Of a stretch of 64,000 nt of DNA, positions 4,759 to 45,464 are shown in pieces (position 1 is the stretch's first letter; each line of letters begins with the position of its first letter). Under the pieces are notes generated by a model. That model was not told the DNA's origin. It did no database searches and saw only the letters and a list, made by a program, of their open reading frames with translations. The DNA lies in the IMG/VR virus record IMGVR_UViG_3300005440_000007; one strand, written 5' to 3'. Source of the DNA: an uncultured virus (IMG/VR IMGVR_UViG_3300005440_000007). Taxonomy: Duplodnaviria; Heunggongvirae; Uroviricota; Caudoviricetes. Position numbers and translations under genes: made by a program.

Positions 4759-5051
4759 AGTTCCAGGACGCCGGCTCCAAGGTTCCGGATCCGCTCCCGC
4801 CCGGCGCGGTGATCTTCTATCACACCCACGGGGTCCGGCAGTACTTCGGGACCTGCAAGCTCCACAAGGATCCGAACTGTCGGCACCTGGTCCACTGGGA
4901 ACCGGGCCACGTCGGGCAAGGCTCCTGGCCAAAGAACATCACCCCCGAGCAGAAGAAAAAGTACCAGCTCGGAAAGACTCTCATGAGAGAATGGGTCGAG
5001 CGAGAAGACGACGTGCCGGCCGCGCAGCGCTGCAGGACGTGTTGGAGATAA
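4755..5051 (+). CDS. hypothetical protein (H..C..CxxC)
   Basis: GTGA coupling. Confidence 0.6.
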   Translation: MKFQDAGSKVPDPLPPGAVIFYHTHGVRQYFGTCKLHKDPNCRHLVHWEPGHVGQGSWPKNITPEQKKKYQLGKTLMREWVEREDDVPAAQRCRTCWR

Positions 5052-5053
5052 CG

Positions 5054-5356
5054 ATGCCCAGCCGCCAGATGGCCTTCCAGATTACGGAGCTCGAGATCCA
5101 CGCGCTCCTCAAGCGGATTGCGGAAACCTACGACCTCCGGGACAAGGAAAAGACCGTCGGAGACTGGATCGACTCGATCGACCCCGACCCCAAGGTCCGG
5201 GAGAAGCTCCAGGCGGTCCTGGTGATCTCGATGAAGTGCCAGAAGCAGGGCCGCGACCCGCTACAGATCCGAAAGCTGATCTGCTGGCGCGATCAGACGG
5301 GCAAGCCCAGCCAGCTTGAAGCCGAGTGGAAATCCGGTCAAAAAACCCCGGTCTAG
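5054..5356 (+). CDS. hypothetical protein
   Basis: GGAG SD; packing. Confidence 0.6.
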   Translation: MPSRQMAFQITELEIHALLKRIAETYDLRDKEKTVGDWIDSIDPDPKVREKLQAVLVISMKCQKQGRDPLQIRKLICWRDQTGKPSQLEAEWKSGQKTPV

Positions 5357-5392
5357 AGAGGGATCTAGGCTCCCAGCTGTAGAATCCATAGG

Positions 5393-5932
5393 ATGGTCGG
5401 AATCCCATGGGTCCACCTGGTAGGAGCCTATCTCCTCCTGGGCAGCGTGATCAGCGGCCTGGGACTCATCGCCAAGATCCGCTGGTCGGGCTATGACAAG
5501 CCCATCTTCCCCAACTCCAAAACCAAGGTCTGGTTCGCGATCGGAATCGTGCTCGGAGTGTTCTTCTGGCCCGTGGCGCTCCTGGGGATCGCCGCGGCGC
5601 GCCGGTATCTGGTGCGCTGGAAGGTGAACAAGATCCTGGGGCATTGCGAGCACGCAACCCCTTTTGACCCTTTTTGCAAAGCCTGCGGCAGGGAGCTCAA
5701 GTACCAAGCTTCCGGAAGAAGGACGCCTACAGAAGCCCGGAAGATGTACCGGGAGATCGAGCGAAAGCTCCGCGAGGAGGAGTATCCGCCGCCAGTATAT
5801 CCGCCGGGCCCGGTCTACTCCTCCTACCAGTGCTCGAAATGCGAAGGGCTTTTCCCGGGATTTCCGCCCCACGCCGATGCCCAGCGGAAGCCCCTCTGTG
5901 AGAACTGCAACCTGGAGAAGCACGATGGCTGA
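5393..5932 (+). CDS. membrane protein (2 TM) with Zn-binding C-terminus; probably leaderless
   Basis: Two hydrophobic segments; TAGAAT 7 nt upstream of ATG. Confidence 0.7.
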   Translation: MVGIPWVHLVGAYLLLGSVISGLGLIAKIRWSGYDKPIFPNSKTKVWFAIGIVLGVFFWPVALLGIAAARRYLVRWKVNKILGHCEHATPFDPFCKACGRELKYQASGRRTPTEARKMYREIERKLREEEYPPPVYPPGPVYSSYQCSKCEGLFPGFPPHADAQRKPLCENCNLEKHDG

Positions 5933-16565: not shown

Positions 16566-16572
16566 GGACCTG

Positions 16573-16600
16573 AGTATACCGCGTATACGCAGGAGGTCAA
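16573..16600 (-). promoter_or_regulatory. sigma70 promoter with GCGTATACGC operator in spacer
   Basis: TTGACC-TCCTGCGTATACGCGG-TATACT. Confidence 0.85.
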
Positions 16601-19194: not shown

Positions 19195-19202
19195 ACCCAG
19201 CG

Positions 19203-19230
19203 AGTATACCGCGTATACGCTGTGTGTCAA
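19203..19230 (-). promoter_or_regulatory. sigma70 promoter with GCGTATACGC operator in spacer
   Basis: TTGACA-CACAGCGTATACGCGG-TATACT. Confidence 0.9.
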
Positions 19231-19817: not shown

Positions 19818-20207
19818 ATGGCAAGGAAGAAGGTCGCGCGGAAGGGAATCGAAAACGGCTGGGAGTTGAAAGACGTCGATCCCTGCTTCCAGTATGCCCG
19901 CCTGATCACGGCGATCGAATGTCACCTGAGGTCCGCCACCCGCCACGTCAATCGAGGCGACGCCACCTCGGCGAACAACGATCTGGTGATGGCCAACCAC
20001 GATGCCCGAAAGCTCTCGAGCATCCTGCCGGCCACGAAGAAGCGTGCAGGGGAGATCGCCAAGGGAACGGATGCTCTGGTCGACAAGCTAAAAGGCGGGA
20101 AAGCGATCCCCGAAAAGGACCGGAGCACGATCATCTCCAGGATCTCCGCGATGAACCCGCCCGTGCGCGATCTTTTCGTGAAGGGCAGCTCGGCCTGCAA
20201 AATCTAA
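19818..20207 (+). CDS. basic helical hypothetical protein in antisense orientation
   Basis: TACAAT 7 nt upstream of ATG; stop overlaps the convergent stop. Confidence 0.7.
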   Translation: MARKKVARKGIENGWELKDVDPCFQYARLITAIECHLRSATRHVNRGDATSANNDLVMANHDARKLSSILPATKKRAGEIAKGTDALVDKLKGGKAIPEKDRSTIISRISAMNPPVRDLFVKGSSACKI

Positions 20208-20941
20208 CCCTTCCGGCTCTGCCCGTGGAAATCCCCGTAGGCATCCTTCCGGTGTGAGATCGCGTCGATCGTGACGAGCCTCTCGCTCTCGTCGACGTGG
20301 AAGATCACGCGCCAGTCCAGGGTCTTCATTCGAAAATGGCCCTTCGCGGCTCCCCATAGAGCGACGACACCGCTCACCTGCGGCCAGTTCCGAAGGCGGT
20401 CCAGGATATCGTCGATCTTGACCTGAACGCCTTTGTTCAGGTCCGCGTACTGACGCTCGGCCTCTGGGGTAAGAGAAATCTGGTAGGCCTGCGGAAGGCT
20501 CTTCATGATGAATGCCGCGTCCAGCGCCGCGACATCCACCGCTTCGATCTCTTTCACCTCAGCATGAAATGCGGAGAAGGCCCGGTGCCCTCCCTCACAA
20601 AGAACCTCTTCGCTGTCCGAGTCGATCACGACCGGCGGGAACTTGGCCTCTCCGGATTCCCAGACCGCCATGTAGTCGATGACCTTTTCCTCATAAAGGG
20701 CCCTCTCGGTCTGGACGAGCAGCCACGTCTCCACCATGACGACCGGGATTTGAGGATTGAGCTGGACGAGAAGGTCCCGAAGATCGTCCGTCGAGATCGC
20801 CTCGGCGTCCCGGATGTTGTAGATCCGGTCGAGGCGCTCTTTCATGCAGACCGAGACATCGGTCTGGATCTCCTGAGGGAGGTCCAGGAAGTGAATGACG
20901 GCAATCTGCCGGATCGGCTTTTTCCGCCGCGGCAAGCCCAT
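20204..20941 (-). CDS. ParB/Srx-like domain fused to RelE/ParE toxin domain
   Basis: FPPVVID..LCEGGHRAFSA; YQISLTPEAERQY..FRMKTLDWRVIF..IDAISHRKDAY. Confidence 0.8.
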   Translation of the reverse strand: MGLPRRKKPIRQIAVIHFLDLPQEIQTDVSVCMKERLDRIYNIRDAEAISTDDLRDLLVQLNPQIPVVMVETWLLVQTERALYEEKVIDYMAVWESGEAKFPPVVIDSDSEEVLCEGGHRAFSAFHAEVKEIEAVDVAALDAAFIMKSLPQAYQISLTPEAERQYADLNKGVQVKIDDILDRLRNWPQVSGVVALWGAAKGHFRMKTLDWRVIFHVDESERLVTIDAISHRKDAYGDFHGQSRKG

Positions 20942-20970
20942 GGAAATGGGTCCCCTGCAGGCTCGCGTTG

Positions 20971-21498
20971 TTAAACGACGAGCTTCTTGAACCTGAGGAA
21001 GAGCTTGAAGACCGAATCCTTGACGCGCTTCAGCTCCTCGCCGATGGGCGCGTAGAACCAGGAGGACATGGACTGTCCCTGCTCGCAATCGAAGATGTTC
21101 CCGACGATCGCGACCTGGTCGTCCTCCTCCATCAGCAGCCAGATCGGAGCGTCGCCGCCCTTGCGGGCTTCGCCGCTGATATGGCATCCCGAGATCGTCA
21201 GGTTGCCCTCCGCCATGAGGGTGACGCCATCGGGAATGACGATCGCTTCGTCGACGATGTACCTTCCCTCCCGGATGTAGACCGTGCCGCCATCCTGAGG
21301 AAGAGCGGAGATCGCCTCCTGGACGCTCATCCCAGGCTCGAGGACGATGAAGTTGCCCGGAACGCCGATGGGGCCCGGGCCGCCGCAGGGTCCCTGGATC
21401 CCGATCGGCCTGTCGAGCTCCTCGGCCAGGGCCTTCGGCGCGACGGCGGCCACGGCGGCTGCACCGCCCAGGAACTTCAGGAATTCTCTGCGGTTCAT
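20971..21498 (-). CDS. twin-arginine-signal protein with short beta-helix-like region
   Basis: MNRREFLKFLGGAAAVAAVAPKALA; SVQEAISAL..GGTVYIREGRY. Confidence 0.75.
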   Translation of the reverse strand: MNRREFLKFLGGAAAVAAVAPKALAEELDRPIGIQGPCGGPGPIGVPGNFIVLEPGMSVQEAISALPQDGGTVYIREGRYIVDEAIVIPDGVTLMAEGNLTISGCHISGEARKGGDAPIWLLMEEDDQVAIVGNIFDCEQGQSMSSWFYAPIGEELKRVKDSVFKLFLRFKKLVV

Positions 21499-25897: not shown

Positions 25898-26082
25898 CTC
25901 ATTCCTCCAAATTCTCCCCTCGACAAAGCTCCAGGCGTCAGCACGGGGCCAGAGCGGACGGCCTTCATCCTCCTGGGACAGTTTGGAGCTCGGCAGGACT
26001 TCACGAGGCCTACCGTACTCATGAAGTAAGGTTTCGAGTAGCGATGCCGATGCCTTGGTCTTGGCTTTGACGAAATCGTCAT
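25894..26082 (-). CDS. small basic protein
   Basis: ATGA coupling at both ends. Confidence 0.55.
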   Translation of the reverse strand: MTISSKPRPRHRHRYSKPYFMSTVGLVKSCRAPNCPRRMKAVRSGPVLTPGALSRGEFGGMR

Positions 26083-26255
26083 GACGCCGACTCCCTGCAT
26101 TTCGTGCAGTCGAAGGGCCCGGCGAGGGTCATGTCCCACGGACCAACCAGATTCCCGCAGGCGGTCTCTCCGTAGCCCGTGTCGTCGTTGTAGTACTTCA
26201 CGTCGTGGACCTCGCCGTCGAGGGTGACGACCATCAGGCTTTCGTTCTTTGGCAC
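26079..26255 (-). CDS. 58-aa protein (H..CG..CxxC; not in ORF track)
   Basis: GTG inside junction repeat; ATGA coupling. Confidence 0.65.
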   Translation of the reverse strand: MPKNESLMVVTLDGEVHDVKYYNDDTGYGETACGNLVGPWDMTLAGPFDCTKCRESAS

Positions 26256-26258
26256 TCT

Positions 26259-26648
26259 TCACCTTTTCTGCGCCAACCGGACTTCGAATTTCATCCTGCT
26301 CCACCGTTCGGGAAATCTGGTCTTCGCCAGCTGGACCATCTCCTCGAACGTGAACGTGCCTTCCGCGAAGAAGTTGCTGTTGGAGCCCGGCCGCGTGTCG
26401 ATCGTGCGGTCCCAGAACGAGAGCGCAGTCCAGCCGTCTTTGTGATGCAGGAGAGCTTCTCCGACGACTTCAGGGCAGCTTCTCGAATAGTGATCTCCGG
26501 GGACGCTGCCTGGACAGAGACCTCCATCCGCCTCTTTCCATGGAACATCGGGATGCGGGTAGTCGTGGATTCGACCGCCCTCTTGCGAGTAGAAGTAGTG
26601 CCCAAGATCTCCGAGGGCGCCAAAGTACAGCATTTTCGGATCCGGCAT
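26259..26648 (-). CDS. hypothetical protein
   Basis: YFG..GH..GWTAL.FWDRT.D.RPGSNS. Confidence 0.75.
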   Translation of the reverse strand: MPDPKMLYFGALGDLGHYFYSQEGGRIHDYPHPDVPWKEADGGLCPGSVPGDHYSRSCPEVVGEALLHHKDGWTALSFWDRTIDTRPGSNSNFFAEGTFTFEEMVQLAKTRFPERWSRMKFEVRLAQKR

Positions 26649-26651
26649 TCT

Positions 26652-26831
26652 TCACCTTTTCTGTGCCACGACCGCAGGACCACAATCGAAGCAATGTTGG
26701 CAGATTGGCCTCCCGACCTTCCTGACGCCGTCGCGCTTTCGCATCTCAATCCGGTCTGCCTTCGCTGTCCGTCGGTCCACCCTCAGTAGAGCCCGACAGA
26801 GAATGCATCGCTTCGTGATCGTCTTCGGCAC
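26652..26831 (-). CDS. 59-aa CxxC protein (not in ORF track)
   Basis: CILC..CQHC; bounded by junction repeats. Confidence 0.65.
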   Translation of the reverse strand: MPKTITKRCILCRALLRVDRRTAKADRIEMRKRDGVRKVGRPICQHCFDCGPAVVAQKR

Positions 26832-26834
26832 TCT

Positions 26835-27020
26835 TTACCTCTTTTGTGCCAGCGCCCGCTCCAGGCGCTTGACCGTCATCTTGTCGTCCTGCTTCTTGAG
26901 CAGGTTGATCGCCGCACGCCGAAGCGCCTTATCCTCCTTTGAATCGGGATAGCGCTTGAATGCCTTGACCGCGTGCCAGATCAGCGCGGCCTTTACGAGC
27001 TGTGCTTCAAGTCGCGTCAC
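26835..27020 (-). CDS. small basic helical protein
   Basis: GGAGG SD. Confidence 0.6.
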   Translation of the reverse strand: MTRLEAQLVKAALIWHAVKAFKRYPDSKEDKALRRAAINLLKKQDDKMTVKRLERALAQKR

Positions 27021-27315
27021 GCTTCCTCCGTGGCTTTTCTTTCTTCAGAACAGTCTCGACGGGCCATTCTCCATCGTAGCGGATCTTTCCGACGATATTG
27101 ATCGTGGCATGACCCTGATCGCTCATCGCGGTGAAAACGTCGGTCACCCCGTCGGCGGCTTTCTGGCGCGTGATGGGCGCCTTCTCGCTGCACAACGTTG
27201 CGAAGGAACACAGCTGATCGGCGGTCCTCGCCTGGACGTGATACATCAGCCCTAGACCTCCTCTTTTGAGATCGTGCTTTGAGGCAAGGCTTCGACTTAC
27301 GATCCAGTCCATCAT
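27007..27315 (-). CDS. hypothetical protein
   Basis: ATGA coupling. Confidence 0.6.
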   Translation of the reverse strand: MMDWIVSRSLASKHDLKRGGLGLMYHVQARTADQLCSFATLCSEKAPITRQKAADGVTDVFTAMSDQGHATINIVGKIRYDGEWPVETVLKKEKPRRKRDAT

Positions 27316-27716
27316 TCTTCAGGCCTCTGAATGAGTCCCGCTTCGATAGCTCTCTCTGCCAGCTTCTTGGATTCTCTGGCCCATCGAAGATCGCTTTGGT
27401 CTACACTCTCGGAAAGTTCTTCGAAGCTAATAGCCCTAATACCATCCCCTTCCTTCTCTTCGGGTCGCGGAAAGACTCTCCAGTCCCTTGGTCTACGCTT
27501 CTTATAGAAATACTCAAGGGCTTGAACCAATCCATAAATGGTGACCGGCCCGGCCCATGATTTGTCAAGGAGATGAAAAATCCATTCCACAACTGAGTCT
27601 GGGCCAGATTCCCCTACACGATCCAACTGTATTTCGTATGAAGCCCTGCCATTCTCGTCGAAATAGATCAGCTCGCTGGAAGATGGATGGTACAACCACT
27701 GTCTGTTCAAAATCAT
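27312..27716 (-). CDS. hypothetical protein, AT-rich (likely recent acquisition)
   Basis: YEI.L.R..EWI.HL..K.W motif; visibly lower GC. Confidence 0.7.
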   Translation of the reverse strand: MILNRQWLYHPSSSELIYFDENGRASYEIQLDRVGESGPDSVVEWIFHLLDKSWAGPVTIYGLVQALEYFYKKRRPRDWRVFPRPEEKEGDGIRAISFEELSESVDQSDLRWARESKKLAERAIEAGLIQRPEE

Positions 27717-27720
27717 TACT

Positions 27721-28104
27721 TCACTTCCACCACGTCAAAACGACTCCGCCCGGGACCGACCATCCTGCGGCCTTCATGCCCGTCCCGCCGGCCAAGAAGC
27801 GACGGCCCCAGGTGTACTTCGGATCCCCATCCTCGAGATTGGAGATCTTGGTGACTTCTCCCCAGCCCTTGAAGTGAGCGAGAGCCAGGATCGCTTCTTC
27901 CGGCGTCACGCCCACCGCATAGACGTCCTCCTGGATCGCGAGCATGCGCGCGTGATCGGCGACCTCCTGGAGGTGGCTCTGGATCAATTCCTCCTTGACC
28001 TGGTTCAGGCTCTTGTCGTCCGGAGCGCTCTTGATCTGGAGCAGCTGCTCCCGGACCATGTGGGCGCGGAGATCGAGTTCTTCAACCGGCATCGTTTCCC
28101 TCAA
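27721..28104 (-). CDS. hypothetical protein
   Basis: Start may be ATG 28092. Confidence 0.65.
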   Translation of the reverse strand: MRETMPVEELDLRAHMVREQLLQIKSAPDDKSLNQVKEELIQSHLQEVADHARMLAIQEDVYAVGVTPEEAILALAHFKGWGEVTKISNLEDGDPKYTWGRRFLAGGTGMKAAGWSVPGGVVLTWWK

Positions 28105-28235
28105 TTTTTTGCTTCTGATATTCTGCTGGAAGGGTCCGCGAGAACGCTGAATGTGCCTGGCCGGATCCAGATCCGACCGCCGTCACGAATCTCCCAAAGC
28201 AAGAGTTGCAACCAGAGTATCTGTATCGTTGTCAT
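28101..28235 (-). CDS. 44-aa protein MTTIQILWL...
   Basis: ATGA coupling. Confidence 0.5.
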   Translation of the reverse strand: MTTIQILWLQLLLWEIRDGGRIWIRPGTFSVLADPSSRISEAKN

Positions 28236-28471
28236 GCCTCGCACTCCGAATTGATGGGCTTGTGTTTCTTCTTCCAAGCCCTCATGACCGAATCGAAGCA
28301 GACCCGGAAGCAGGTATCCCATCCAGAGCCATCGGGATTCCGTACCCCTGTCTCGTAGAACTTGCGGGCTTGCTGGACGACACGCTCCGACTCCCAGACC
28401 GCGATCCACGTCAGCGCGTCAAGAAGGGTTGGTTCCTCGCAAGCTTTGGAAACTGCTTCCTTCAACGTCAT
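28232..28471 (-). CDS. hypothetical protein
   Basis: Start revised to MTLKEAV. Confidence 0.6.
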   Translation of the reverse strand: MTLKEAVSKACEEPTLLDALTWIAVWESERVVQQARKFYETGVRNPDGSGWDTCFRVCFDSVMRAWKKKHKPINSECEA

Positions 28472-28476
28472 ATAGC

Positions 28477-28578
28477 TCACCGACGAGGGGGACCGTTCGT
28501 CGCCATCAGGATCAGCGCCACCGCGCAACAGAGCATGATGCCGCCCGCATACAACCACAGTTCTTGTAGAGTCGTCAT
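28477..28578 (-). CDS. 33-aa single-TM peptide MTTLQELWL...
   Basis: Fills the gap; hydrophobic helix. Confidence 0.55.
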   Translation of the reverse strand: MTTLQELWLYAGGIMLCCAVALILMATNGPPRR

Positions 28579-28583
28579 CGCGT

Positions 28584-28808
28584 TCAAAACCCTTCGATGA
28601 ACTTCCTCATGGCGATCGACGTATCAAGGTGGCCAGCGTCCAGCATCTGGGTTCCGAGCCTGATCATGGGGTGGTCTCTAGTCCCGTCATGCTTTCCCAG
28701 GTCCGAGATCACGGACATGAAAGCCTGCCGAAGATCTCCCTGATCAAGAAGGTCGAGAGCCCGCTTCTTCATCCACTCCAGATGCTCCCTGACGGTCGCG
28801 GCTTCCAT
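28584..28808 (-). CDS. conserved small phage protein
   Basis: EHL.W.K.RAL..SDLGKH..T..FIEGF. Confidence 0.75.
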   Translation of the reverse strand: MEAATVREHLEWMKKRALDLLDQGDLRQAFMSVISDLGKHDGTRDHPMIRLGTQMLDAGHLDTSIAMRKFIEGF

Positions 28809-28994
28809 CTATTCATCCCTCTCGCAGGGGCAAGTTCTATCCGGACCACCGCAGGCAGCGCAGCCCTTGGCGCAGGTCTCCAGATCTTTGGCAAGCTTCC
28901 GGATCTCCTTGCTTTCGGAGTGGGACGGAGCGAGAACCTTGAGCCAGTTCACGGCCTTTTCCGCGAGCTCGCGCAGCTTTTCGTTCGACGCCAT
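28809..28994 (-). CDS. small hypothetical protein
   Basis: TAGATG junctions at both ends. Confidence 0.65.
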   Translation of the reverse strand: MASNEKLRELAEKAVNWLKVLAPSHSESKEIRKLAKDLETCAKGCAACGGPDRTCPCERDE

Positions 28995-29693
28995 CTACGC
29001 CCCCTTCTTCTCGCGCCAGCACTCGAGCTCCTGGCCGTTTGCATGCTTGCGCTTGTGAAGACTGTGGCCGTCGGGAGGGAGCTGGCAGATCGCCCTGGAC
29101 CCCGGGTGCGGCGAGTAGCATCCCTTTGGAGTGTCGTCCCAGTTCGTGGGGAGCGGCTCCGACTTGACGCCAAGCATGGCCCATTCCGCGAACTTCCACG
29201 ACTCCCGCGGCGTGCTGTAGGCGATCCTGGAAATGTGATGGGGGAAGCCGTCCTGCGTGAATCCGACGCAGACAGGATTGAAGGGCGCGAGCAGGTGTGC
29301 CACCTTGAGGAAGCGGTCCTTGAATCTCGGGAAGGATCCCCACGCCAGGACGACTATCTTCGCCTTCCCGGCAAGCTCGACGATCCGCTTGTCGTTCAGC
29401 GCGATCTCGTCCTCGGTACAGTCCTTGAGTTTCTTGGGGTAGGGCGTGATATAGGGATAGGCGTTCGCGTGGATCGTGCCGCCGAGCTCCCACGCCTTGG
29501 CGAACCCCATGCCCTTCACCACGGTCATGTCATCGACGTCGGCGCCGGCGCGGCTGGGGTTGAGCCCTACAAACAAGGCCTTCCCCAGGCTCTCCTTGCC
29601 GATAAAGTCGCGCCCGAGCGCAAAGCGACAGCGCGCCTTAGGCGTCTCCTTGCTGAACTCGGCCCAACCCGTGACTCCCGGTTTCATCGGCAT
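28995..29693 (-). CDS. DUF1643 family protein
   Basis: FVGLNPSRA..DD.T..AN..P.ITP.P..VLAWG..G.P.H. Confidence 0.85.
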   Translation of the reverse strand: MPMKPGVTGWAEFSKETPKARCRFALGRDFIGKESLGKALFVGLNPSRAGADVDDMTVVKGMGFAKAWELGGTIHANAYPYITPYPKKLKDCTEDEIALNDKRIVELAGKAKIVVLAWGSFPRFKDRFLKVAHLLAPFNPVCVGFTQDGFPHHISRIAYSTPRESWKFAEWAMLGVKSEPLPTNWDDTPKGCYSPHPGSRAICQLPPDGHSLHKRKHANGQELECWREKKGA

Positions 29694-29694
29694 A

Positions 29695-29979
29695 TCACTT
29701 CCTCGGCTTGAGCTTGACCGCGCAGATCGCGCCGTCGACAAATTTATGGACGGGATCGACATGGTGATGTTCGCCACCCGGCTCGACCAGGTGAATGTCG
29801 ATCTGATTTCCTTCTTCGATCGCCGTGGGAGGCACGCCTTCGATGCGGAGAAGGCATTCACGGTTCCTGACGACCTCTCCGGCGGGGCGTTCCCCGAAGA
29901 AGTAGACCACCCCCCGGGTGCGATCGTACTCGAGGTACCCATGGACCCTGATCTTCTTCTCGATTGCTTTCTCCGCCAT
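29695..29979 (-). CDS. hypothetical protein
   Basis: AAGGAG SD; start revised. Confidence 0.7.
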   Translation of the reverse strand: MAEKAIEKKIRVHGYLEYDRTRGVVYFFGERPAGEVVRNRECLLRIEGVPPTAIEEGNQIDIHLVEPGGEHHHVDPVHKFVDGAICAVKLKPRK

Positions 29980-30000
29980 AAGGACTCCTTTCTCTCTTCG

Positions 30001-30157
30001 GTGCCGTCTACGCTGACCTGCCCGGTGATTCTCCGGGTCCTCCCAAATCCCCCGAACAACTATGGGCCTTCCCGGCCGGAAAAGGTTCCACAAGCTCGGC
30101 AAGAACTTCTTGGGTGCTTTGTTTCTTCACTCAGCTACAGGTCAGCGTAGAGGACAC
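30001..30157 (-). ncRNA. candidate 157-nt structured ncRNA (rod with central bubble, 6S-like architecture)
   Basis: 14-bp perfect IR 30007-30020/30138-30151 extendable by G-U pairs; long internal hairpin; intergenic. Confidence 0.6.
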
Positions 30158-30165
30158 CTCTTCTT

Positions 30166-30663
30166 CTATTTCGGCTGAAATCCAGGCGCCGCGTGCTCGG
30201 GCTGCCCGAAATACTTGTCCCCGTAGCCCTGCAGGATGAGAAGGCCCATGATGTCCGGGGCCTTGTGGTCGGGCGGCTTCATCCACTTCCCATCCGATTC
30301 CCGCCTGTAGGATCCGGGTCCAAACTTCGCGAGGTTGTTCGCGTCGACGGCCTCGAGGACCGGCCTGTCCTTCACTCCGAGCGCGGAGAGCGTCCCGGTC
30401 GTGACGACGCTTATATCCCCGCAGCCGTCGACGATCTTGACCAGATCCGGCTCCCGGACCTGGGGGCCGACCTCGATCGCACCGTCGAAGGGCTTCAAGA
30501 CGACCTGGAACCCCATGGCCTCGATCGTCTCGAGCGCTTCCTCAAGGATCAGATTCGCACGAAGCCTCAAGATTTCGTTCGGACACATGATGGGCCGGGC
30601 CGGAACGACCTGGCCGGCCTTCTTCATGAACTCCTCGACGCGCTCCTGGTGCTCGGTCTTCAT
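30166..30663 (-). CDS. MazG-like / PRA-PH family NTP pyrophosphohydrolase
   Basis: LRANLILEEALE..DG.GD..VV..G..VD.NNLAK..DGK..KP. Confidence 0.85.
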   Translation of the reverse strand: MKTEHQERVEEFMKKAGQVVPARPIMCPNEILRLRANLILEEALETIEAMGFQVVLKPFDGAIEVGPQVREPDLVKIVDGCGDISVVTTGTLSALGVKDRPVLEAVDANNLAKFGPGSYRRESDGKWMKPPDHKAPDIMGLLILQGYGDKYFGQPEHAAPGFQPK

Positions 30664-30854
30664 TTCCGCATCTCCTTGGGCACCTCGTGGACCTTCTTGC
30701 ACTTCGGGCAGCTGACCCTCGAGAAGTTTGGCGTTGGCCCGGTGTAGACGATTGCGCCGCAAGTACACGAAAGCCTGACGACGTTCGACATCGCCTGGCT
30801 CCTGTGCCACTGCGGGAACATGTTCCGTTGGCTCCTGACCTCTCCTCGATTCAT
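30660..30854 (-). CDS. small Zn-ribbon protein
   Basis: GAGG SD; CTC..CPKC. Confidence 0.65.
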   Translation of the reverse strand: MNRGEVRSQRNMFPQWHRSQAMSNVVRLSCTCGAIVYTGPTPNFSRVSCPKCKKVHEVPKEMRK

Positions 30855-30862
30855 CGTTACCT

Positions 30863-31297
30863 CTACGAGCACTGGCAGCAGGGACCAAACTCTCCCGTAC
30901 AGTGACACCTGCCGAGCGAATCGTGATGGTTGCACTGCAGGACCGCGCCGCAGGATGGGCATGCAGCCATGACTTCCAGGCGCTTCCCCATCTTGTGCTG
31001 GATCCTGGAGAGGATCGCCTTCTCGAGGTCGATCTTCGCGCCGGGAAAGACGTTCGCCGCTCGGACGACCGAGATGATGATGTCGGCCAGGTACTTTCCG
31101 ACATCGAACGAGTCTGCGGAGAGCTCCCCGGAGTGGTCGGCCTCCTCAGTCATGTTCTCGATCGCCTGGGTGGCCTTCCGAATGTGTTTTAGCGCGTGGT
31201 CCAGATCCTTTTGGGGGCAGTACCTCTTCCTGAACTCCTCGCTGTAGCCCTCGCTCGTCCACAGCTTCTTGAGCTCCTCCTGCAGGTAGTTCAGCAC
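30863..31297 (-). CDS. MazG-like protein with Cys-rich tail
   Basis: HAL.H..EE.DH..LADIII..IDLE.AI. Confidence 0.65.
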   Translation of the reverse strand: MLNYLQEELKKLWTSEGYSEEFRKRYCPQKDLDHALKHIRKATQAIENMTEEADHSGELSADSFDVGKYLADIIISVVRAANVFPGAKIDLEKAILSRIQHKMGKRLEVMAACPSCGAVLQCNHHDSLGRCHCTGEFGPCCQCS

Positions 31298-31764
31298 GCT
31301 TCACCTCCGTACAGGATGAGGGTGAATTTGTCCGACGAAAGATGCCGGTCGAGGATCGGCCGCACGTCTGCCATGTCGAGGCCCCCGTTCCCACAGCCGA
31401 CCATGCTGACCGCTACCGGCCGATCGGTCTTGAGCTCCGCGAGCTGCTTGGCGCTCCGCTCGATCAGCTTGAGGTCGGCCTTGTTCTTCCAGGACATCCA
31501 CGGCGCGACGGGATTGAGAGGCTTGACGGGGAAGGCGATGAGCGGGCCGTTCGGATAGGGGAGCACCGGCGTATTCTCACGGCGCACGGCGCATTCGGTG
31601 CCGAACCAAAACGCAAATCCGGTGTACTTGTTGGCGGCCTGGAGGGCTAGGCCCCTCCCCATCACGTTGCACCGGTCCTTCTCCTTCCATCCGATGTTCG
31701 TGGGGATCACGAGATCGTGAGTCTTCTCGTAGGCCCAGATGCTCCCTCTTTCGGTCTTGATCAA
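31291..31764 (-). CDS. macro domain (ADP-ribose binding/hydrolase, DarG/Poa1-like)
   Basis: VIPTN..VMGRGLALQ..IAFPVK..IERS..VGCGNGGL. Confidence 0.85.
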   Translation of the reverse strand: MIKTERGSIWAYEKTHDLVIPTNIGWKEKDRCNVMGRGLALQAANKYTGFAFWFGTECAVRRENTPVLPYPNGPLIAFPVKPLNPVAPWMSWKNKADLKLIERSAKQLAELKTDRPVAVSMVGCGNGGLDMADVRPILDRHLSSDKFTLILYGGEAC

Positions 31765-32063
31765 CGGGATTCTCCTGTTTTTCCAAGAGACTCACCATCG
31801 GAGAGGCGCCCACCAAACGTTCGGCGCTCCTCCGAACGATCACCGCGACAGTCTGGGCACGTCTTATGCCTTCCAGTACTCAGAAACTTCGCCTTACATC
31901 TGGAGCAAGTAGCGTCCTTTCCTGCCGGAAGAATTCCAGTTCTACACTTTGAGTGAAGTCCCGTCTTTGAATCGGCAGGCTCCCCGCACACATGGCACCG
32001 ATCTGGAGGAGTCTTACGCTCACCCAACGATTTTCCGTAAGCCTCCCAGTACGGGTCAGGCAT
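31761..32063 (-). CDS. Cys-rich hypothetical protein
   Basis: CHVC, CSRC, CPDC. Confidence 0.6.
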   Translation of the reverse strand: MPDPYWEAYGKSLGERKTPPDRCHVCGEPADSKTGLHSKCRTGILPAGKDATCSRCKAKFLSTGRHKTCPDCRGDRSEERRTFGGRLSDGESLGKTGESR

Positions 32064-32445
32064 AGCCCACCCGCTTCTTGAGATTCCGACGGACCCACTC
32101 TCCACCATCGATATGCCAGGTCGCACGAAGTTCCAGAATCTCCGGCTTGAAGATCGCGATCTCCTTCTCGTCTTGGAGAACCCCGTGGCACACCGCCGGC
32201 GCCCATTTCCTACCCTTCCCAAGGAGCGACGAGAACTCGTATTCGATCACGATGCCCATCTCGCTCTCGTCGCCCCTAAGGATGGAAGGCGGGCTTTTGC
32301 GGAGCGCAAAAAGCGCTGCGATTTCGAAGTCGGTCGTCGTACAGAACGCCCGCTTTCCGTTCAGATGGTTCTGAGGGTAGGTTCGAGGGAGAGAGGAAAG
32401 AAGCCCCTCGAGATTCCACCGGGCTGTCCCGTGGTAGACGATCAC
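32056..32445 (-). CDS. ADP-ribosyltransferase-fold protein
   Basis: VYHGT..FCTTTDFEIAALFA..QDEKEI. Confidence 0.7.
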   Translation of the reverse strand: MIVYHGTARWNLEGLLSSLPRTYPQNHLNGKRAFCTTTDFEIAALFALRKSPPSILRGDESEMGIVIEYEFSSLLGKGRKWAPAVCHGVLQDEKEIAIFKPEILELRATWHIDGGEWVRRNLKKRVGYA

Positions 32446-32930
32446 GACTTCCGTCTCCTTCCGCCGTCGCGCCGCTCATGGCCGCGACGTTCCCTGGAAA
32501 TCATGGAGCCCAGGACAAATTCCGGACCCCCGTCCTTCCGGCGCTCTTTTTTTCTCCTGACGGGAGTGCGTCGATCGGGAACGTTCTTCCGAAGTTTCCG
32601 CTTGCTGATGAGATTGAACTTGCACAAGATGCAGTCGCTCAACCGATATGGGTGCTGGACATGCTTGTCGAACATCTCCACGAACGACGCCGCCGCTTCG
32701 ATGCCCATTCGGTAGGAGTCGGGATCGTAACCACGCCTGTTCCACTTGGCGATCGCCTGGGGATTGAACTTGTCCTCGTTGGTGCCGATGAATTCCTTGT
32801 CCAGGGCGGCAGGCCCCATGCACCCGCAATGATCGCATTCCATGGCCGGTCCGCGATCCGTCGAGCAGAACCTCTTCCCGCTCGGGACTCTTCCACAGAA
32901 CGGGCACTCGCGAATCTTTTCCTTCTTCAT
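32442..32930 (-). CDS. Lar-like (restriction alleviation) Zn-ribbon protein
   Basis: ECPFCG..ECDHCG..GP..AIAKWNRR. Confidence 0.75.
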   Translation of the reverse strand: MKKEKIRECPFCGRVPSGKRFCSTDRGPAMECDHCGCMGPAALDKEFIGTNEDKFNPQAIAKWNRRGYDPDSYRMGIEAAASFVEMFDKHVQHPYRLSDCILCKFNLISKRKLRKNVPDRRTPVRRKKERRKDGGPEFVLGSMISRERRGHERRDGGRRRKS

Positions 32931-32937
32931 CCGCACT

Positions 32938-33085
32938 CCGCGCAGCGCATCGAGAGACAACCCGCCGGGTCACCGTTCATCCCCCAAGGAATTCCCGACT
33001 CTCCCCGCGCCATCCGGCACGTTTGAGGGGGACGGATTAGGGCCCTTTTACGGGCGCACGGGGGCCCTCTCGACGCGCTGCGCGA
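32938..33085 (-). ncRNA. candidate 148-nt structured element closed by a ~19-27 bp stem
   Basis: TCGCGCAGCGCGTCGAGAG (33085-33067) pairs with CTCTCGATGCGCTGCGCGG (32956-32938), G-U only deviations. Confidence 0.55.
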
Positions 33086-33579
33086 CTCCTTTTCTTCTTC
33101 GGGCTGTTCCCACTCGACCAGGTCAAATACTCCCGGAAAATGGCGTCCATGGCCTTCGGATTCTTCTCGTATCCGCCGGTCTTCTTGGCGGCATCCCAAA
33201 AGCACTGGAGGATCTTGAGGGTGGTGGGATGCTTGGCAGCGAGGGGACGCTGAGGATCCGCGACCGCCGTCAGGCCGACCACGAGTGCGTCGTAGCTGGG
33301 GAATGCGGCTTCCCATTGACGAACCGCCTCGTGCTCGACATCCTCCCGAGTCTTGAATCGGTTTGTCTCGTCGCCGATCTTCAAGGCCGAGATCTCGGTC
33401 GTGTCATCCTTCTGATTGAGATAGTCGACTTCTTTCTGGTCGGTGAGCTTGCGCTTGAGCTCGAGGGACTTCCTCTCGCTTTCGTCGATGCAGTGGATCT
33501 TGCCGTACCAGTGCTCGGCGTTGAAGCTCCCGAACGAGGTGTAGGAAGAAACGGTCAGGACGGCAAGCTTGACCTTCAC
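33037..33579 (-). CDS. hypothetical protein
   Basis: GTGA coupling; 3' end runs into the structured element. Confidence 0.7.
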   Translation of the reverse strand: MKVKLAVLTVSSYTSFGSFNAEHWYGKIHCIDESERKSLELKRKLTDQKEVDYLNQKDDTTEISALKIGDETNRFKTREDVEHEAVRQWEAAFPSYDALVVGLTAVADPQRPLAAKHPTTLKILQCFWDAAKKTGGYEKNPKAMDAIFREYLTWSSGNSPKKKRSRAARREGPRAPVKGP

Positions 33580-33797
33580 TCGCCCCTCGCAGACCTCATC
33601 TGGAGTTCCTTCTCGAGGACGTCTTTGACGACAATGAGGTGCATGGTGAAGACGTCATGAGGCCCCTTCACGATCCGCTCCTTGACCGCCTGAAGAGCGG
33701 CTTCGATATCCTCCCTCGAGCGGGGAGTCCCGGACTTATCGACGAATTCCATGTCTTTTCCTTCAGGATTGATGGGGTCGTGACGTCCGGTGCTCAC
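33576..33797 (-). CDS. hypothetical protein, likely leaderless
   Basis: GTG 7 nt after -10. Confidence 0.65.
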   Translation of the reverse strand: MSTGRHDPINPEGKDMEFVDKSGTPRSREDIEAALQAVKERIVKGPHDVFTMHLIVVKDVLEKELQMRSARGE

Positions 33798-33804
33798 GAA
33801 CGTG

Positions 33805-33832
33805 AATATACGCCGTATACGTGGAGAGTCAA
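33805..33832 (-). promoter_or_regulatory. sigma70 promoter with CGTATACG operator core in spacer
   Basis: TTGACT-CTCCACGTATACGGCG-TATATT. Confidence 0.85.
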
Positions 33833-33858
33833 GAAGATTCTGAATCTTTTCGGGGACG

Positions 33859-33885
33859 GAGGCTTAGGGGAAGGTTCTAAGCCTC
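33859..33885 (-). terminator. 9-bp hairpin at the end of gene 33884-34411 (no U-tract)
   Basis: GAGGCTTAG-N9-CTAAGCCTC. Confidence 0.4.
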
Positions 33886-34411
33886 AACATTCGAGGATTC
33901 CATACCCCTCAAGGAACTCGTCCAGGTCTTCCCTGAGAATGATCTTCCGAAGCACGACCGCGCGCTCCTCGAATGCCGCTAGAAGCTTTTTCGTGGCCAT
34001 CAGAAGTTCGTCTTTTCCGGTGAAATCGCTATGGCCTTCTCCCGTCTCCTTGTATTTCGCGGTCTGATCCTCGTAGTACTTCAAAAAGAAATCTTCTGGG
34101 CTTTCCTTGATGACGCCTGTTTCGATGGCCGCCATCCCGGCGAAGAAGTCTCCCATGATTCGCTCTACCCACGGCTGGACGCGTTCGTAGGCTTTGCGGA
34201 TGTCTCGGCTGGTGATCTTGTCGGAATTGCGAACGACCATCGCCTTGGCCGGACCGCCAACGTAAGGATGGTCGTGCGCGGTGATCATGCGGCCATGAAG
34301 AGGATCGACCAGGATCAACTGATATTCTGGGAGGCCGATCAACCTCCAGTAGGAAGTTCGACCGCAACGATCCCAAAGCCCGAAGTGCTTTCGAAGGTCG
34401 ATGAGCGGCAT
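33884..34411 (-). CDS. hypothetical protein
   Basis: TAGAAT then AAGGA SD. Confidence 0.7.
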   Translation of the reverse strand: MPLIDLRKHFGLWDRCGRTSYWRLIGLPEYQLILVDPLHGRMITAHDHPYVGGPAKAMVVRNSDKITSRDIRKAYERVQPWVERIMGDFFAGMAAIETGVIKESPEDFFLKYYEDQTAKYKETGEGHSDFTGKDELLMATKKLLAAFEERAVVLRKIILREDLDEFLEGYGILEC

Positions 34412-34460
34412 ATCCTTTCAGATTCTAGCATCAGACCGCCAGAGAGGGTACGCTAAGACA

Positions 34461-34862
34461 ATGCGATTTTTGCATGGGACCTCAGAACGAGAGTGGGCCC
34501 TCATACAGCAGTCCGGAGGCCTTCGAAACCCCTATCTCACGACGCTCGAGACCGTGGCGTGGTTCTTTGCCGAAGAGTCCGCCGACAACGCAAGAAGTCG
34601 CCCCATTATTCTCGAGGTCACCGTCGACGACACGAGCAAGCTCGAGGCGGATCTGCCGATGTTCCAGGAGCCGATCTTCGAAGCGGTTGAAGAGATGGGC
34701 TACCCATCAGTCTACGCCTACCACCAGGCGGTGAAGGAGGGGAACGTTCCGTGGCCGCGAAATAGGAAGGACTGGGAGACGTCCCTTGAAGTGATGAAGT
34801 CGGTGCGCTACTGGGGCCTGATTCCCCCAGGAAAGATACGGATCTACGAACGCCTTCCCTAA
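34461..34862 (+). CDS. ART-fold (Tpt1/KptA-like) protein, antisense to neighbours
   Basis: FLHGTS..I..GGL..PYLT..A..FA..ILEV..Y.G.IPP..I. Confidence 0.7.
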   Translation: MRFLHGTSEREWALIQQSGGLRNPYLTTLETVAWFFAEESADNARSRPIILEVTVDDTSKLEADLPMFQEPIFEAVEEMGYPSVYAYHQAVKEGNVPWPRNRKDWETSLEVMKSVRYWGLIPPGKIRIYERLP

Positions 34863-35233
34863 GAGTCCATTCGCGCGCGGCTTTCCGAGATCAGCTCGTC
34901 GACGTCCTTGAAGACGCCATTCATGAAGCGAGTGATGATCTCCGCGGCGAAGGCGGCATCCTGAGGAGTCCAGAATTTCCCGAGCATGAGATCCTGGTGT
35001 GTCGGCTCGCGCTGTTCCCGGGAAGGCTTGTAGTTCCGGGCAACGTGGACGTACCAACCCTCGGAGCCGCCGGCGAGCCAGTAAGCGGAGGGGTAACCTT
35101 TCCCCCAGATCTCGTCTTTGTTGAACGACGCCCTGGACTCGCCCACCGAGAAATATTCCTTCCGGTCGAGGTGAGCTTCCCTGACGAATGTAGCCACGTC
35201 GGCCCACGTCATTTTCCCGGGATCAGTCTCCAT
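34859..35233 (-). CDS. hypothetical protein
   Basis: EYFS..GGSEGWYVHV..LGK. Confidence 0.7.
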   Translation of the reverse strand: METDPGKMTWADVATFVREAHLDRKEYFSVGESRASFNKDEIWGKGYPSAYWLAGGSEGWYVHVARNYKPSREQREPTHQDLMLGKFWTPQDAAFAAEIITRFMNGVFKDVDELISESRARMDS

Positions 35234-37053: not shown

Positions 37054-38454
37054 TTAGAAGGGCCCTCGACGTAGCCGAACACGTCCGAGCACGGAGCCGG
37101 AAGGTCCAGGTTGGAATTGAGCGGAGCCGGAAGCTACAGGCCGCTGCCGGAGCCACGTCCCTGCGTCACATGGAGACGGCTGGGCCATCGGCGGCGGCAT
37201 GATCACAATGACGGCCCTCCCCGTCGGCTCTTCTCCCGGAGTCGGGATCGGAGACGGCGTCGGAGATGGGGTCGGCGTCGGAGTAGGAGTTGGCGTCGGG
37301 GTCAGAGTTGGAGTTGGAGTTGGAGTTGGAGTCGGCGTCGGAATTGGAGTCTGACCGTACTGGGAAAAGTCGGGAAGAGCTGAACAACGCTGGTCCGTGG
37401 CAAGCATCCACCTACGGCCCGGATAGAGCGTCGGAATGTCCTGGACCAGAACGTTCTTCTCGAGAGGCGCATGATCCGGACCATTGAAGAGATCGACGAG
37501 CGTCCCCTGTTGACCGCTTGTGCGAATGCAAGCAACGAGATCGGGATACGCGTCTCCCGGGCCGTCCACGCCTCCGCCGCCACAGTAGGGGCTGCTGGCA
37601 TCGACCTTGATCACGTTCTCCTGGTCGGCGCACTCCGGAGACTGCGTGGTCATGTTCTGTTCGTAAGCCGCCGACTTCGCTGGCAGGAAGTAGTTCACCG
37701 TGATCCCGTTCGACGGCGGGCACATGATGTAGAGCGATCCCTTTGGAAGCGCGCACGGTCCTGTCGTCGGAGTGGCCGGATGCCCGCAGCCGCCTTCTTC
37801 TTTGTACGTGACGTCTCCGAAGAGATCGACGCACTCTTTCGAGACGCTCTCCAAGATGACGGAGAAATCCGAAGGATTGAGGATGTTGTACGTCCCATCC
37901 CCGAGCGGACATGCCCACACCGCATGACCCGCTGAGACTCCCCCACCCGGAAGAGGTTCGTAACCTGCTGGAACCTGGCACGCCGGAGAAGGGGCTGGGG
38001 CGGGAGCTGGGGCTGGAGTTGGAGCAGGAGCGGGAGTCGGAGCAGGAGTCGGCGCAGGAGTCGGAGTCCCATCCCGACCGATAGCACAGCTGGGATCTAG
38101 GGTCGTCACATGGCTGAATGAGTTGACGCAGTCTTGTGAGACCGATACCAGAATCGTGCCCAGAGTGGTTCCGTCGATGATATCAAATGTCCCGTCCGGC
38201 TTTGGACAGGCATAGACGGGATGATCCAATGGAATGCCCGCTGGGACCGGACAGGCAGGCGCTGGCGTTGCTCCGCCAGTAGGCTCGCAAACCCACTGCT
38301 CCACCAAGTTCACGACCTTGATGGTGGGCGTCTCGTTCGGGCCGCAAGTCGGCGGAAGACCTTGAGGAACGCCCAGCTTCGGACGGTGAAGAGGAACCGA
38401 TCTCCCAAGCATAGAAGAGAAAGGCCTGTTCCCGAAGAAATCTCCTCGACGCAT
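37054..38454 (-). CDS. Cys-rich repeat protein with PT/PA linkers (candidate surface glycoprotein)
   Basis: Repeated ACPxxDGT[FY] modules; long (PT)n. Confidence 0.8.
37239..37350 (-). repeat. (Pro-Thr)n hexamer repeat
   Basis: ggagtt/ggcgtc/ggagtc units. Confidence 0.85.
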
Positions 38455-38456
38455 TC

Positions 38457-38888
38457 TCAGAGCAACGCGATGAGCGTCGCCAGCCCTCCTGCTACACCGA
38501 CCAGGGCGCCCACGGTCTTGAGCGTGGATTCGGTGCTCTGATGCGTCAGAGAGCCGATCGCCTCGACGCACTCGATCACGTTTTCGATGAGCGACCACTC
38601 CTGATCGGTCACCTCGAGGTCCGTGCCCTGGGTTGAAAGGAAGTTCGAGATCTTGTTCTGGAGCGCCTGGACATGGCTCCAGCGGCGCGAACGCAGGTCC
38701 CGCCAGCAGGCTTCCTTGGTATATACCTCGGGGCTTCCTGGGTTCTGGACGAGCGTCTGAATCGCCTCGTTCACCGCCTGGGCCAGATCGCGCGTGATGG
38801 TGATCGGCTCGACGTCCGCCTGGGCGAGCGCTGGGCCCGCAAGCATGATCGGCGAGAATCGTGGCGGCCCGAAAACGGATGCTTTCAT
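38457..38888 (-). CDS. protein with leader and C-terminal TM anchor
   Basis: [18 protein letters not shown]. Confidence 0.75.
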
Positions 38889-43913: not shown

Positions 43914-44242
43914 GATCCCTCGATCTGGATGAATTGGGCGAACGGTATGCCGCGGACGGGGGCATGGACGACCTCGACCTGGCCGGAAGGTCCGTATCCC
44001 CAGAAATAGCGATAGCGATCGAAGCTCGCGCGCTGCTGGGGCGTCATCGCTTGGAGGTCCCGGCGGACCACCGAAAGAAGATCTTCGACGGTCCAAGTCC
44101 CTCTCGACATCCCAGCAGATTCGAACTCCTTGAGCTCTGCATCGGGATGACGCTCGCGGATTTCCTCAAGGACATCCACGAGGCTCTTCGCCTGAACGGC
44201 TCCCAGACGCACGCGCCGACGAGCCACGATCAGGTCGTCCAC
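43910..44242 (-). CDS. hypothetical protein with RRRVRLGA leader
   Basis: AAGGA SD before GTG 44242. Confidence 0.65.
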   Translation of the reverse strand: MDDLIVARRRVRLGAVQAKSLVDVLEEIRERHPDAELKEFESAGMSRGTWTVEDLLSVVRRDLQAMTPQQRASFDRYRYFWGYGPSGQVEVVHAPVRGIPFAQFIQIEGS

Positions 44243-45456
44243 TGATCCTTTTCGACGAACTGATCCGGCCGCGTGGCCCTCGTCGTCTGCGAAAACATCC
44301 TCGTCTTGTAGGGCGTGGACTGGCACATTGGACGCGAGGGCGGCGAGAAGCTCTTATTCGGAACGAAGGCCGGAGGAAGGCTTGGAACCGGAGCGGCTCC
44401 AGGAGCAACCCGAAGCGGCGGCGGCGCCGCGGGAGCCGAGAACGGCGTGGTCCTGATCGGCACCGAGGTGCCCGGTGTGACCTGGCTCGGGGGAGTCACC
44501 GAGACCGGCCCAGGAGTCGGAGCGGGCCCCGGCGTCGGCGTCGGAGCCGGAATCGGCGTCGGTGTGGGAGTCGGAGTGGGCCCAGGCGTCGGCGTCGGCG
44601 TCGGAGTTGGGCTTGGGGTCTGGCAGCGTGGATCGCTCTCGTTCACCGCATGAACCCCAAGAGGAAGCTGCTCGTATGCGTGCTCGCGGCTCCAGCTCTC
44701 GGACAGGATCCTTCCGGTGGGCTGAGAGTTTTCGTCGATTTCAACGAGCCTGTCTCCGCAGGCGATCGCGCCGGTGCTGCACTGTCCGGCGATCATAGCC
44801 AGCCCCGCTCTGCACCCTCCGGGGGGAACATAAGCGCACAGGGCATCCCACTTCGCTCGGTCGAGCTCGTCGATCTTACCCTCAAAACCTTGATTGATGC
44901 CGCGCTCATCCACGGCCTGGCAGTGAACGAGCCATGTGTTCTGTCCAGGACTCCAACTGAGAGTGCAGCAAAGAGGAACCGGAGGAGGCTCGTTCTGGTT
45001 GTAAATGGATCCGCAGATCGGCTTGCAGCGAGAATCGTCGCCGCAGCCGACTCCAGCCGGAAGATCGGTGATGTTGTCGCTGTACTGGCCGAATTGATCG
45101 CGCGAGATGTTTTGCGCGATGATCGCGCCCGTCGCGTAATCGACAAGCGTGAATGTGCCGTCTCCCATGGGACACGCCAGCGCCGGAGGAAGAGGTGTCG
45201 GCGTCGGCGTCGGCGTCGGAGTCGGGGTCGGCGCAGGAGTCCCGTCTGGCCCGCATTCAGGGAAGCCCGGATAGATTCCAGGCGAACTTATCCACAGCGG
45301 ATTGGTGCAGTGTTTTACTTGAGAGCCAGTCTGGGGGTCCGTCACGACACAACAATTCGCCGCTTGCCCCAGGCGCCGAGGACCGGCCAAGCGCACTGTG
45401 GGAAGGCCTCGAGCCTGGTCCCACGGCCCGGCGCCGAAGAAATTGCGGCGAAACAT
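44230..45456 (-). CDS. Cys-rich PT-repeat protein, related to 37054-38454
   Basis: ACPMGDGTF module; two (PT)n tracts. Confidence 0.8.
44510..44615 (-). repeat. (Pro-Thr/Gly-Pro)n coding repeat
   Basis: ggcgtc/ggagtc hexamers. Confidence 0.8.
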
Positions 45457-45464
45457 GGGCACCT

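Follow-up and report, generated by a model that had tools for sequence, protein, structure and literature searches.

A stem-closed RNA fold between two phage genes with the distribution of an exchanged cassette

The intergenic RNase III hairpins of phage T7 are roughly 50-60 nt long, lie at many gene junctions and are conserved in place. Correia elements offer a bacterial parallel: they are described as co-transcribed, with a hairpin that can bind RNase III and can be cleaved or protected by it, and with a presence that varies between strains (PMC2649163). MITEs common to hosts and viruses are documented as well (PMC11602168). A preliminary description of the locus studied here had instead likened it to 6S RNA and proposed a virus-encoded promoter mimic. 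A literature search for phage-encoded 6S-type RNA returned only host 6S RNA and an unrelated lambda “6S” transcript.

The locus lies in the window (the whole stretch of DNA that was analyzed, 64 kb), a phage contig of 60% GC in which nearly all genes from position ~7,300 on are on the minus strand. The contig encodes an RNase H-like exonuclease, Lar-like, NUDIX and DUF1643 proteins, many glycosyltransferases and methyltransferases, and the phage's own sigma factor (434-1333); no tRNA was found in the window. A 327-aa ORF (20204-21187, minus strand) has a C-terminal part that matches the RelE-like toxin family phrog_1213 (E 3.6e-13). Two long minus-strand ORFs (37054-38598 and 44230-45462) contain imperfect 6- and 12-nt periodic repeats of the GGAGTC/GGCGTC type (D1 and D2; 37214-37383, 37979-38079, 44483-44640 and 45175-45252), which imply low-complexity acidic or Ser/Pro-rich tracts.

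The element itself occupies 30000..30158 of the minus strand, between two co-directional genes. Upstream is a gene for a MazG-like nucleotide pyrophosphohydrolase (30166..30663, minus; PF01503 at 1.3e-07, phrog_671 at 2.3e-22; relatives of 165 aa), whose stop codon lies 8 nt from the start of the element. Downstream is a gene for a conserved 94-aa protein (29695..29979, minus), with a GGAG at 29985-29988; its family has 43 relatives, all metagenomic, in which the motifs HHH and C-A-V-K-L are invariant, and it matched no Pfam or PHROG family. From the end of the element there are 11 nt to the GGAG and 20 nt to the ATG, and the ribosome-binding site of the 94-aa gene is thus outside the closing helix of the fold described below.

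Folded as minus-strand RNA, positions 30001-30157 had a minimum free energy of -74.6 kcal/mol, whereas 200 shuffles averaged -52.0 (z -5.7), none of them folding as well. The plus strand reached -59.1 kcal/mol (z -3.1), which agrees with the earlier placement of the fold on the transcribed strand. In a sliding scan of both strands (160 nt, corrected for GC), the element ranked first of 6,384 windows. The fold proposed for 157 nt was therefore real, although its extent needed correction: one more G-C pair carries the helix to 30000/30158. For the resulting 159 nt, the energy is -77.9 kcal/mol on the minus strand and -62.4 for the complement. When the two strands were folded as single-stranded DNA, there was little difference between them (-36.1 versus -32.2 kcal/mol); it is thus the pairing rules of RNA that create the strand preference. 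The minus-strand fold contains 33 G-C, 17 A-U and 9 G-U pairs and at most one possible A.C apposition, so that deviations from canonical pairing favor the minus strand and are, as had been claimed, mostly G-U.

All of the helices named in the preliminary description (the closing stem, CCCAA/UUGGG, CCGAGC/GUUCGG, UUGUGG/CCAUAG, CUUUUCC/GGGAAGG and the CCCGG/CCGGG hairpin) were recovered in the minimum free energy fold of the minus strand, together with the purine-rich stretch. Their arrangement, however, differed from the rod with a central bubble that had been described. The closing helix, P1, spans 21 positions (6 bp, a 1x1 C.C mismatch and 14 bp, with one G-U pair) and is formed by a 5' arm at 30138..30158 and a 3' arm at 30000..30020, which are 90% complementary; the cytosine previously drawn as a bulge is one side of the mismatch. 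Inside P1, the 5' side of the junction is a purine-rich joining strand of 23 nt (30115..30137) that is largely unpaired, with at most weak pairing. The 3' side consists of 4 unpaired nucleotides and a stable hairpin, P4 (30021..30037), with a 5-bp GC stem and a 7-nt loop. The third arm is an irregular hairpin of 73 nt, P3 (30042..30114), which holds eight of the nine G-U pairs. With most of the 3' side taken up by the 5-bp hairpin, there is no open bubble, and the element forms a three-way junction instead of a rod.

To place the element among relatives, we used 13 loci from JGI metagenome contigs that had been found by a scan with the 94-aa family. A covariance model of the element matched three of the 13 (L096, L100 and L101). 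The element of L096 was identical to that of the window, and L100 and L101 were identical to each other in this region. Between the window and L100 the element was identical at 151 of 159 positions (95%). Identity was 81% over the last 143 nt of the MazG-like gene and 64% over the first 150 nt of the 94-aa gene, and the excess conservation of the element over both of these coding stretches gave a Fisher p of 1e-9. The spacers were conserved at 2 of 7 positions upstream and at 17 of 20 positions downstream, the latter with an additional 2-nt indel. High identity thus ended at the base of the helix on the upstream side and faded inside the 20-nt spacer on the downstream side. Four-fold degenerate sites differed at 35 of 68 positions in the MazG-like gene and at 16 of 31 in the 94-aa gene; divergence in the element is about one tenth of that at these adjacent sites.

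In two other relatives, L103 and L104, the MazG-like gene was 97.7% and 94.5% identical to that of the window, respectively, yet the element was absent. The junction in both consists of the stop codon, 12 nt and the start of the next gene (an empty site; L103:912-923). At the same place L097 has a small Cys-rich ORF, read by eye (2357-2500), and L098 (444-997), L099 (508-828) and L102 have other, unrelated coding sequence. The MazG-like/94-aa junction is therefore a variable slot in this phage group, which can be empty or hold either the RNA cassette or ORFs.

We also compared Logan contigs of four public runs (X16, X18, X20 and X21) over 29600-30600. X16 and X20 had the window form of the region, and in X18 an L100-like upstream flank was joined to the shared part. 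A 167-nt wastewater contig from X21 spanned 30025-30161 with six differences and one inserted base. Since this contig runs into 28 bases upstream of the element that are unlike the window, the element also exists beside a different flank. The RNA-Seq label of X21 is a guess, and contigs of this kind cannot show expression, ends or strand.

Further searches were negative. No second copy was found in the 64-kb window by a repeat search, a mismatch pattern, BLAST or the covariance model run unfiltered, for which the next best hit had an E of 0.09. The covariance model, also run without filters, found no further copy elsewhere in the 14 related loci. BLAST against 50,697 phage records and 72,556 plasmids gave no match to the element. 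In IMG/VR, a scan with a 15-mer of the stem returned 95 single chance hits and no BLAST-supported copy, DNA scans with a 20-mer of the single strand, with both arms gapped and with a 21-mer of the 3' half returned 0 hits each, and protein-based scans found no relative. A comparison of GTDB genomes with the 94-aa family yielded one weak match of 15 residues in a Bacteroidota MAG, which was taken as spurious. At least half of the sampled words of 27000-33000 were present in 20 of the 24 public runs listed; the labels of all 20 name soil or rhizosphere metagenomes, and 4 of these could be the origin of the window itself. No RNA library was among the runs listed for this region.

The changes between copies were then set against the fold. 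Of the eight differences between the window and L100, four exchange C-G and U-G pairs, three fall at positions unpaired in the window fold and one breaks a pair; one of the three, C74U, is paired with the changed base when the L100 copy itself is folded. The joining strand and P4 are invariant between these two copies. Three changes were listed for X21, namely a U-G to C-G exchange, an internal-loop change and an inserted base in an internal loop. The changes in both comparisons can be accommodated by the minus-strand fold, and on the opposite strand several of them would give A.C mismatches. The earlier argument for selection at the RNA level thus holds to the extent that the few substitutions keep pairs through C-G/U-G exchange. 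It does not extend to covariation: compensatory, two-sided changes were seen at 0 of 54 pairs with only two full sequences compared, and selection on the fold is therefore not demonstrated in this way. The near-total identity of the copies, loops included, would fit recent transfer at least as well as functional constraint.

Consensus scans are in keeping with transcription of the element from a distant start. The only sigma-70-like promoter match on the minus strand within 26000-35000 is at 33805..33832 (minus; TTGACT, a 16-nt spacer and TATATT, 10 of 12 consensus positions), 3.7 kb upstream of the element. Judged by its match to the consensus only, it is probably the start of the operon that carries the element. 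No sigma-70-like promoter was found within 29000-31500, a scan whose reach does not include phage-specific promoter types, and there was no terminator-like site on the minus strand within 26000-35000. Because these scans revealed no promoter or terminator belonging to the element, the simplest reading is that it is co-transcribed with its co-directional flanking genes.

Two families of short repeats also occur in the window. A 29-nt repeat (D7) has three copies, at 16572-16600, 19202-19230 and 33804-33832, each with a GTATAC-type palindrome; these are probably early promoters with an operator. A 25-nt repeat (D10), likewise in three copies that are 84-100% identical (26251-26275, 26644-26668 and 26827-26851), lies at or near the starts of small minus-strand ORFs, to which it may supply a common region for translation initiation or regulation.

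A search for long closing helices identified a second element of the same design and of unrelated sequence at 32938..33085 (minus). Its 148 nt comprise a 20-bp closing helix and the ~110 nt that it encloses, with a folding energy of -87 kcal/mol (z -4.2). It is not homologous to the first element (9.5 bits with the covariance model, E 2.5). Its 3' end lies 7 nt before the ATG (32930) of the Lar-like gene in the same predicted operon, and its 5' part overlaps the last 15 codons of the ORF at 33037-33579, where the codon-position GC bias is lost. GAGT is present on both sides of a 146-nt core. In a 171-base search, the second element gave a sub-threshold score of 25.7 bits with RF02840 (Ref68/Lacto-3), for which the gathering score is 44 (E 4e-4). 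At the other end of the window, 5361-5435 contains an imperfect inverted repeat of 34 nt, 71% complementary with a 7-nt loop, between plus-strand ORFs at 4991-5356 and 5393-5932.

Taken as a whole, these observations agree with a discrete cassette, exchanged between related phages, whose RNA folds within an operon transcript. Our best explanation, which we put forward tentatively, is that the element is a laterally exchanged, co-transcribed RNA hairpin cassette that probably serves as an RNase III-type processing or stability element. A self-contained cassette would occupy the variable slot between the MazG-like and 94-aa genes in uncultured soil and rhizosphere phages, would be transcribed within the minus-strand operon and would fold into the 21-position closing helix around the three-way junction. 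It would then act in cis, in the processing or stabilization of the transcript between the two cistrons. The closing helix would be cut by host RNase III, a cleavage predicted from the length of the helix alone. As a result, the two cistrons would be parted, the downstream message would begin at a defined 5' end near its ribosome-binding site, and a compact folded RNA of some 120-155 nt would be set free.

We favor a role in cis because of the 21-position helix, the intercistronic place, the nearby ribosome-binding site and the analogy with Correia elements and T7. Like a T7-type RNase III site, the element has a double-stranded helix of about two turns on the transcribed strand, and it lies between co-directional genes that are not separated by a terminator. 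In its spread, the element is similar to transcribed palindromic elements, Correia and ERIC repeats among them. As there are only two stem-closed elements in 64 kb, they are not a general processing system of the operon. For a plain processing hairpin, neither the conserved single strand of 23 nt nor the three-way junction would be needed. An RNA released by RNase III and a MITE, which the preliminary description had offered as alternatives, both fit the evidence better than the 6S mimic that it preferred.

The second of these, a selfish MITE-like DNA, is an unlikely explanation. The element would be a non-autonomous inverted-repeat sequence mobilized in trans by a host or phage transposase, and its RNA fold would be a by-product of the palindrome. 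Read as DNA, the arms of P1 are 21-nt terminal inverted repeats, and in the window the element is abutted at both ends by GAAGA, as had been reported. The upstream copy (30159..30163, minus) and the downstream copy (29995..29999, minus) could represent a target-site duplication, although there is no direct repeat at the L100 copy, where the upstream GAAGA has no counterpart, and such a repeat arises easily by chance because the flanks are purine-rich. The filled and empty sites among close relatives speak for mobility, as does the identity of 95% between sharp boundaries against a neutral-site divergence of ~50%.

Dispersed near-identical copies had been named beforehand as the sign of a MITE, and the evidence on this point is divided: there is a 95% copy in a diverged lineage and a copy with a different flank in X21, whereas the element is single in the 64-kb window and at each locus among the 14 related loci. 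The 86 window proteins matched no transposase family in PHROGs or Pfam. The absence of any match in the phage records, the plasmids or IMG/VR also weighs against a MITE. Finally, the interior is not a simple palindrome, and its nine G-U pairs against at most one A.C apposition favor one strand.

It could also be speculated that the element is a trans-acting phage noncoding RNA, excised or separately made, that titrates a host factor, whether as a 6S-like holoenzyme decoy or by engaging another RNA-binding protein or a defense sensor. We consider this unlikely too. The length of 157-159 nt and a closing helix and long arm of roughly the size of the 6S arms are in keeping with it, the invariant 23-nt single strand faces the junction, the fold is strand-specific and the phage has a sigma factor. 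On the other hand, the element is dispensable in the near-identical phages L103 and L104, a stable hairpin takes the place of the supposed bubble on the 3' side, there is no promoter-like site nearby and no covariation was seen. A holoenzyme decoy would, in addition, be expected to sequester the core enzyme that the phage sigma factor needs.

Comparison with known RNA families was in agreement with this assessment. At the gathering score no Rfam family matched anywhere in the window, and at E <= 10 there was no match to the element in either 601 or 171 bases; one weak hit in the 601-base search was outside the element. The search against the 6S model (RF00013) that had been suggested earlier was thus negative, although the silence of this model is weak evidence because it gave a hit in only 5 of 14 well-known control genomes. 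Readings as a hammerhead, a tRNA-like RNA, a Y RNA, a retron or a riboswitch were dropped for want of an Rfam or ARAGORN match or of a partner gene, and in view of the ribosome-binding site outside the helix; scans of the 86 window proteins against PHROGs and Pfam detected no domain of the TROVE or reverse-transcriptase type.

Within the trans-acting alternatives, a traded decoy, a three-way-junction RNA with an invariant 23-nt single strand that is cut from the operon transcript at the closing helix and binds a host protein (the holoenzyme or a defense or RNA-surveillance factor), is distinctly unlikely. An advantage conferred by such a decoy on some hosts would explain how the cassette moves between lineages as an exact unit. 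That the element is 6S RNA specifically is most improbable, and polymerase binding would be a prediction at most. The proposed promoter mimic is not supported: there is no Rfam match, no adjacent promoter-like site and no covariation among the 54 pairs, and the element is absent in close relatives.

A small protein gene in place of an RNA is very unlikely. The candidate is a frame of 40 codons at 30008-30130 (minus) with a GTG start in the unpaired stretch. It holds five of the eight differences between the window and L100, and by a count derived by hand four of those five are synonymous third positions, a proportion that is not significant given six frames to pick from. The synonymous substitutions are the same ones that preserve pairs, and the coding and pairing signals are therefore inseparable. 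The frame is broken by the one-base insertion in the X21 copy, its ribosome-binding site is weak, and no word-sharing protein of 22-70 residues was found among 5.8 billion. A plus-strand translation of the element, compared with 1.84 billion representatives, produced five hits; since the alignment of each is broken into 5-20 stretches, these were attributed to low-complexity repeats. That the element is an inverted repeat which arose by chance in a variable spacer, devoid of function or mobility, is scarcely credible, for the mosaic nature of phage intergenic slots and the other inserts in this one are outweighed by the z of -5.7 with none of the shuffles as good, the first rank among the scanned windows and a divergence ten-fold below neighboring four-fold sites.

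Phage genomes are annotated almost wholly by their proteins. The behavior of the cassette, a non-coding unit, is that of an accessory gene: its boundaries are exact, its conservation far exceeds that of the neighboring genes, and it occurs in some lineages but is cleanly missing from near-identical ones. The natural filled and empty junctions are ready-made controls for the role of stem-closed RNA cassettes. As a mere processing hairpin, or as a palindrome that hitch-hikes, the element would be ordinary; with a true action in trans, it would amount to an RNA weapon that phages can exchange in their conflict with hosts.

Among described systems, MITEs of viral genomes (vMITEs) share with the element a short non-coding sequence, inverted ends, a phage intergenic location and an occurrence common to several genomes (PMC11602168). 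The element differs from them in having no multi-copy genome, no partner transposase and no consistent target duplication, and its strand-biased G-U pairing points to RNA. It has in common with 6S RNA (SsrS, RF00013) a similar length, a closing helix, a long distal arm and a central single-stranded stretch. In contrast to 6S RNA, it does not match the model, has a hairpin at the 3' side of its center and has no promoter of its own that we could find, and with a presence in only three of 13 related loci it is not kept as a core regulator would be.

Correia elements (CREE/NEMIS, Neisseria) are likewise small and co-transcribed, with inverted-repeat ends and a variable presence (PMC2649163). They occur in many copies per bacterial genome, whereas the phage element has one copy in 64 kb; no sequence similarity was found between the two, and the interior of the phage element is a three-way junction with a long single strand, for which cleavage is only predicted. 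Like the T7 hairpins, the element is stable and lies where two genes of a co-directional phage operon meet, a short distance before the ribosome-binding site of the second. Unlike them, it is 159 nt long and branched, is present or absent between close relatives and belongs to a design that occurs only twice in the 64 kb.
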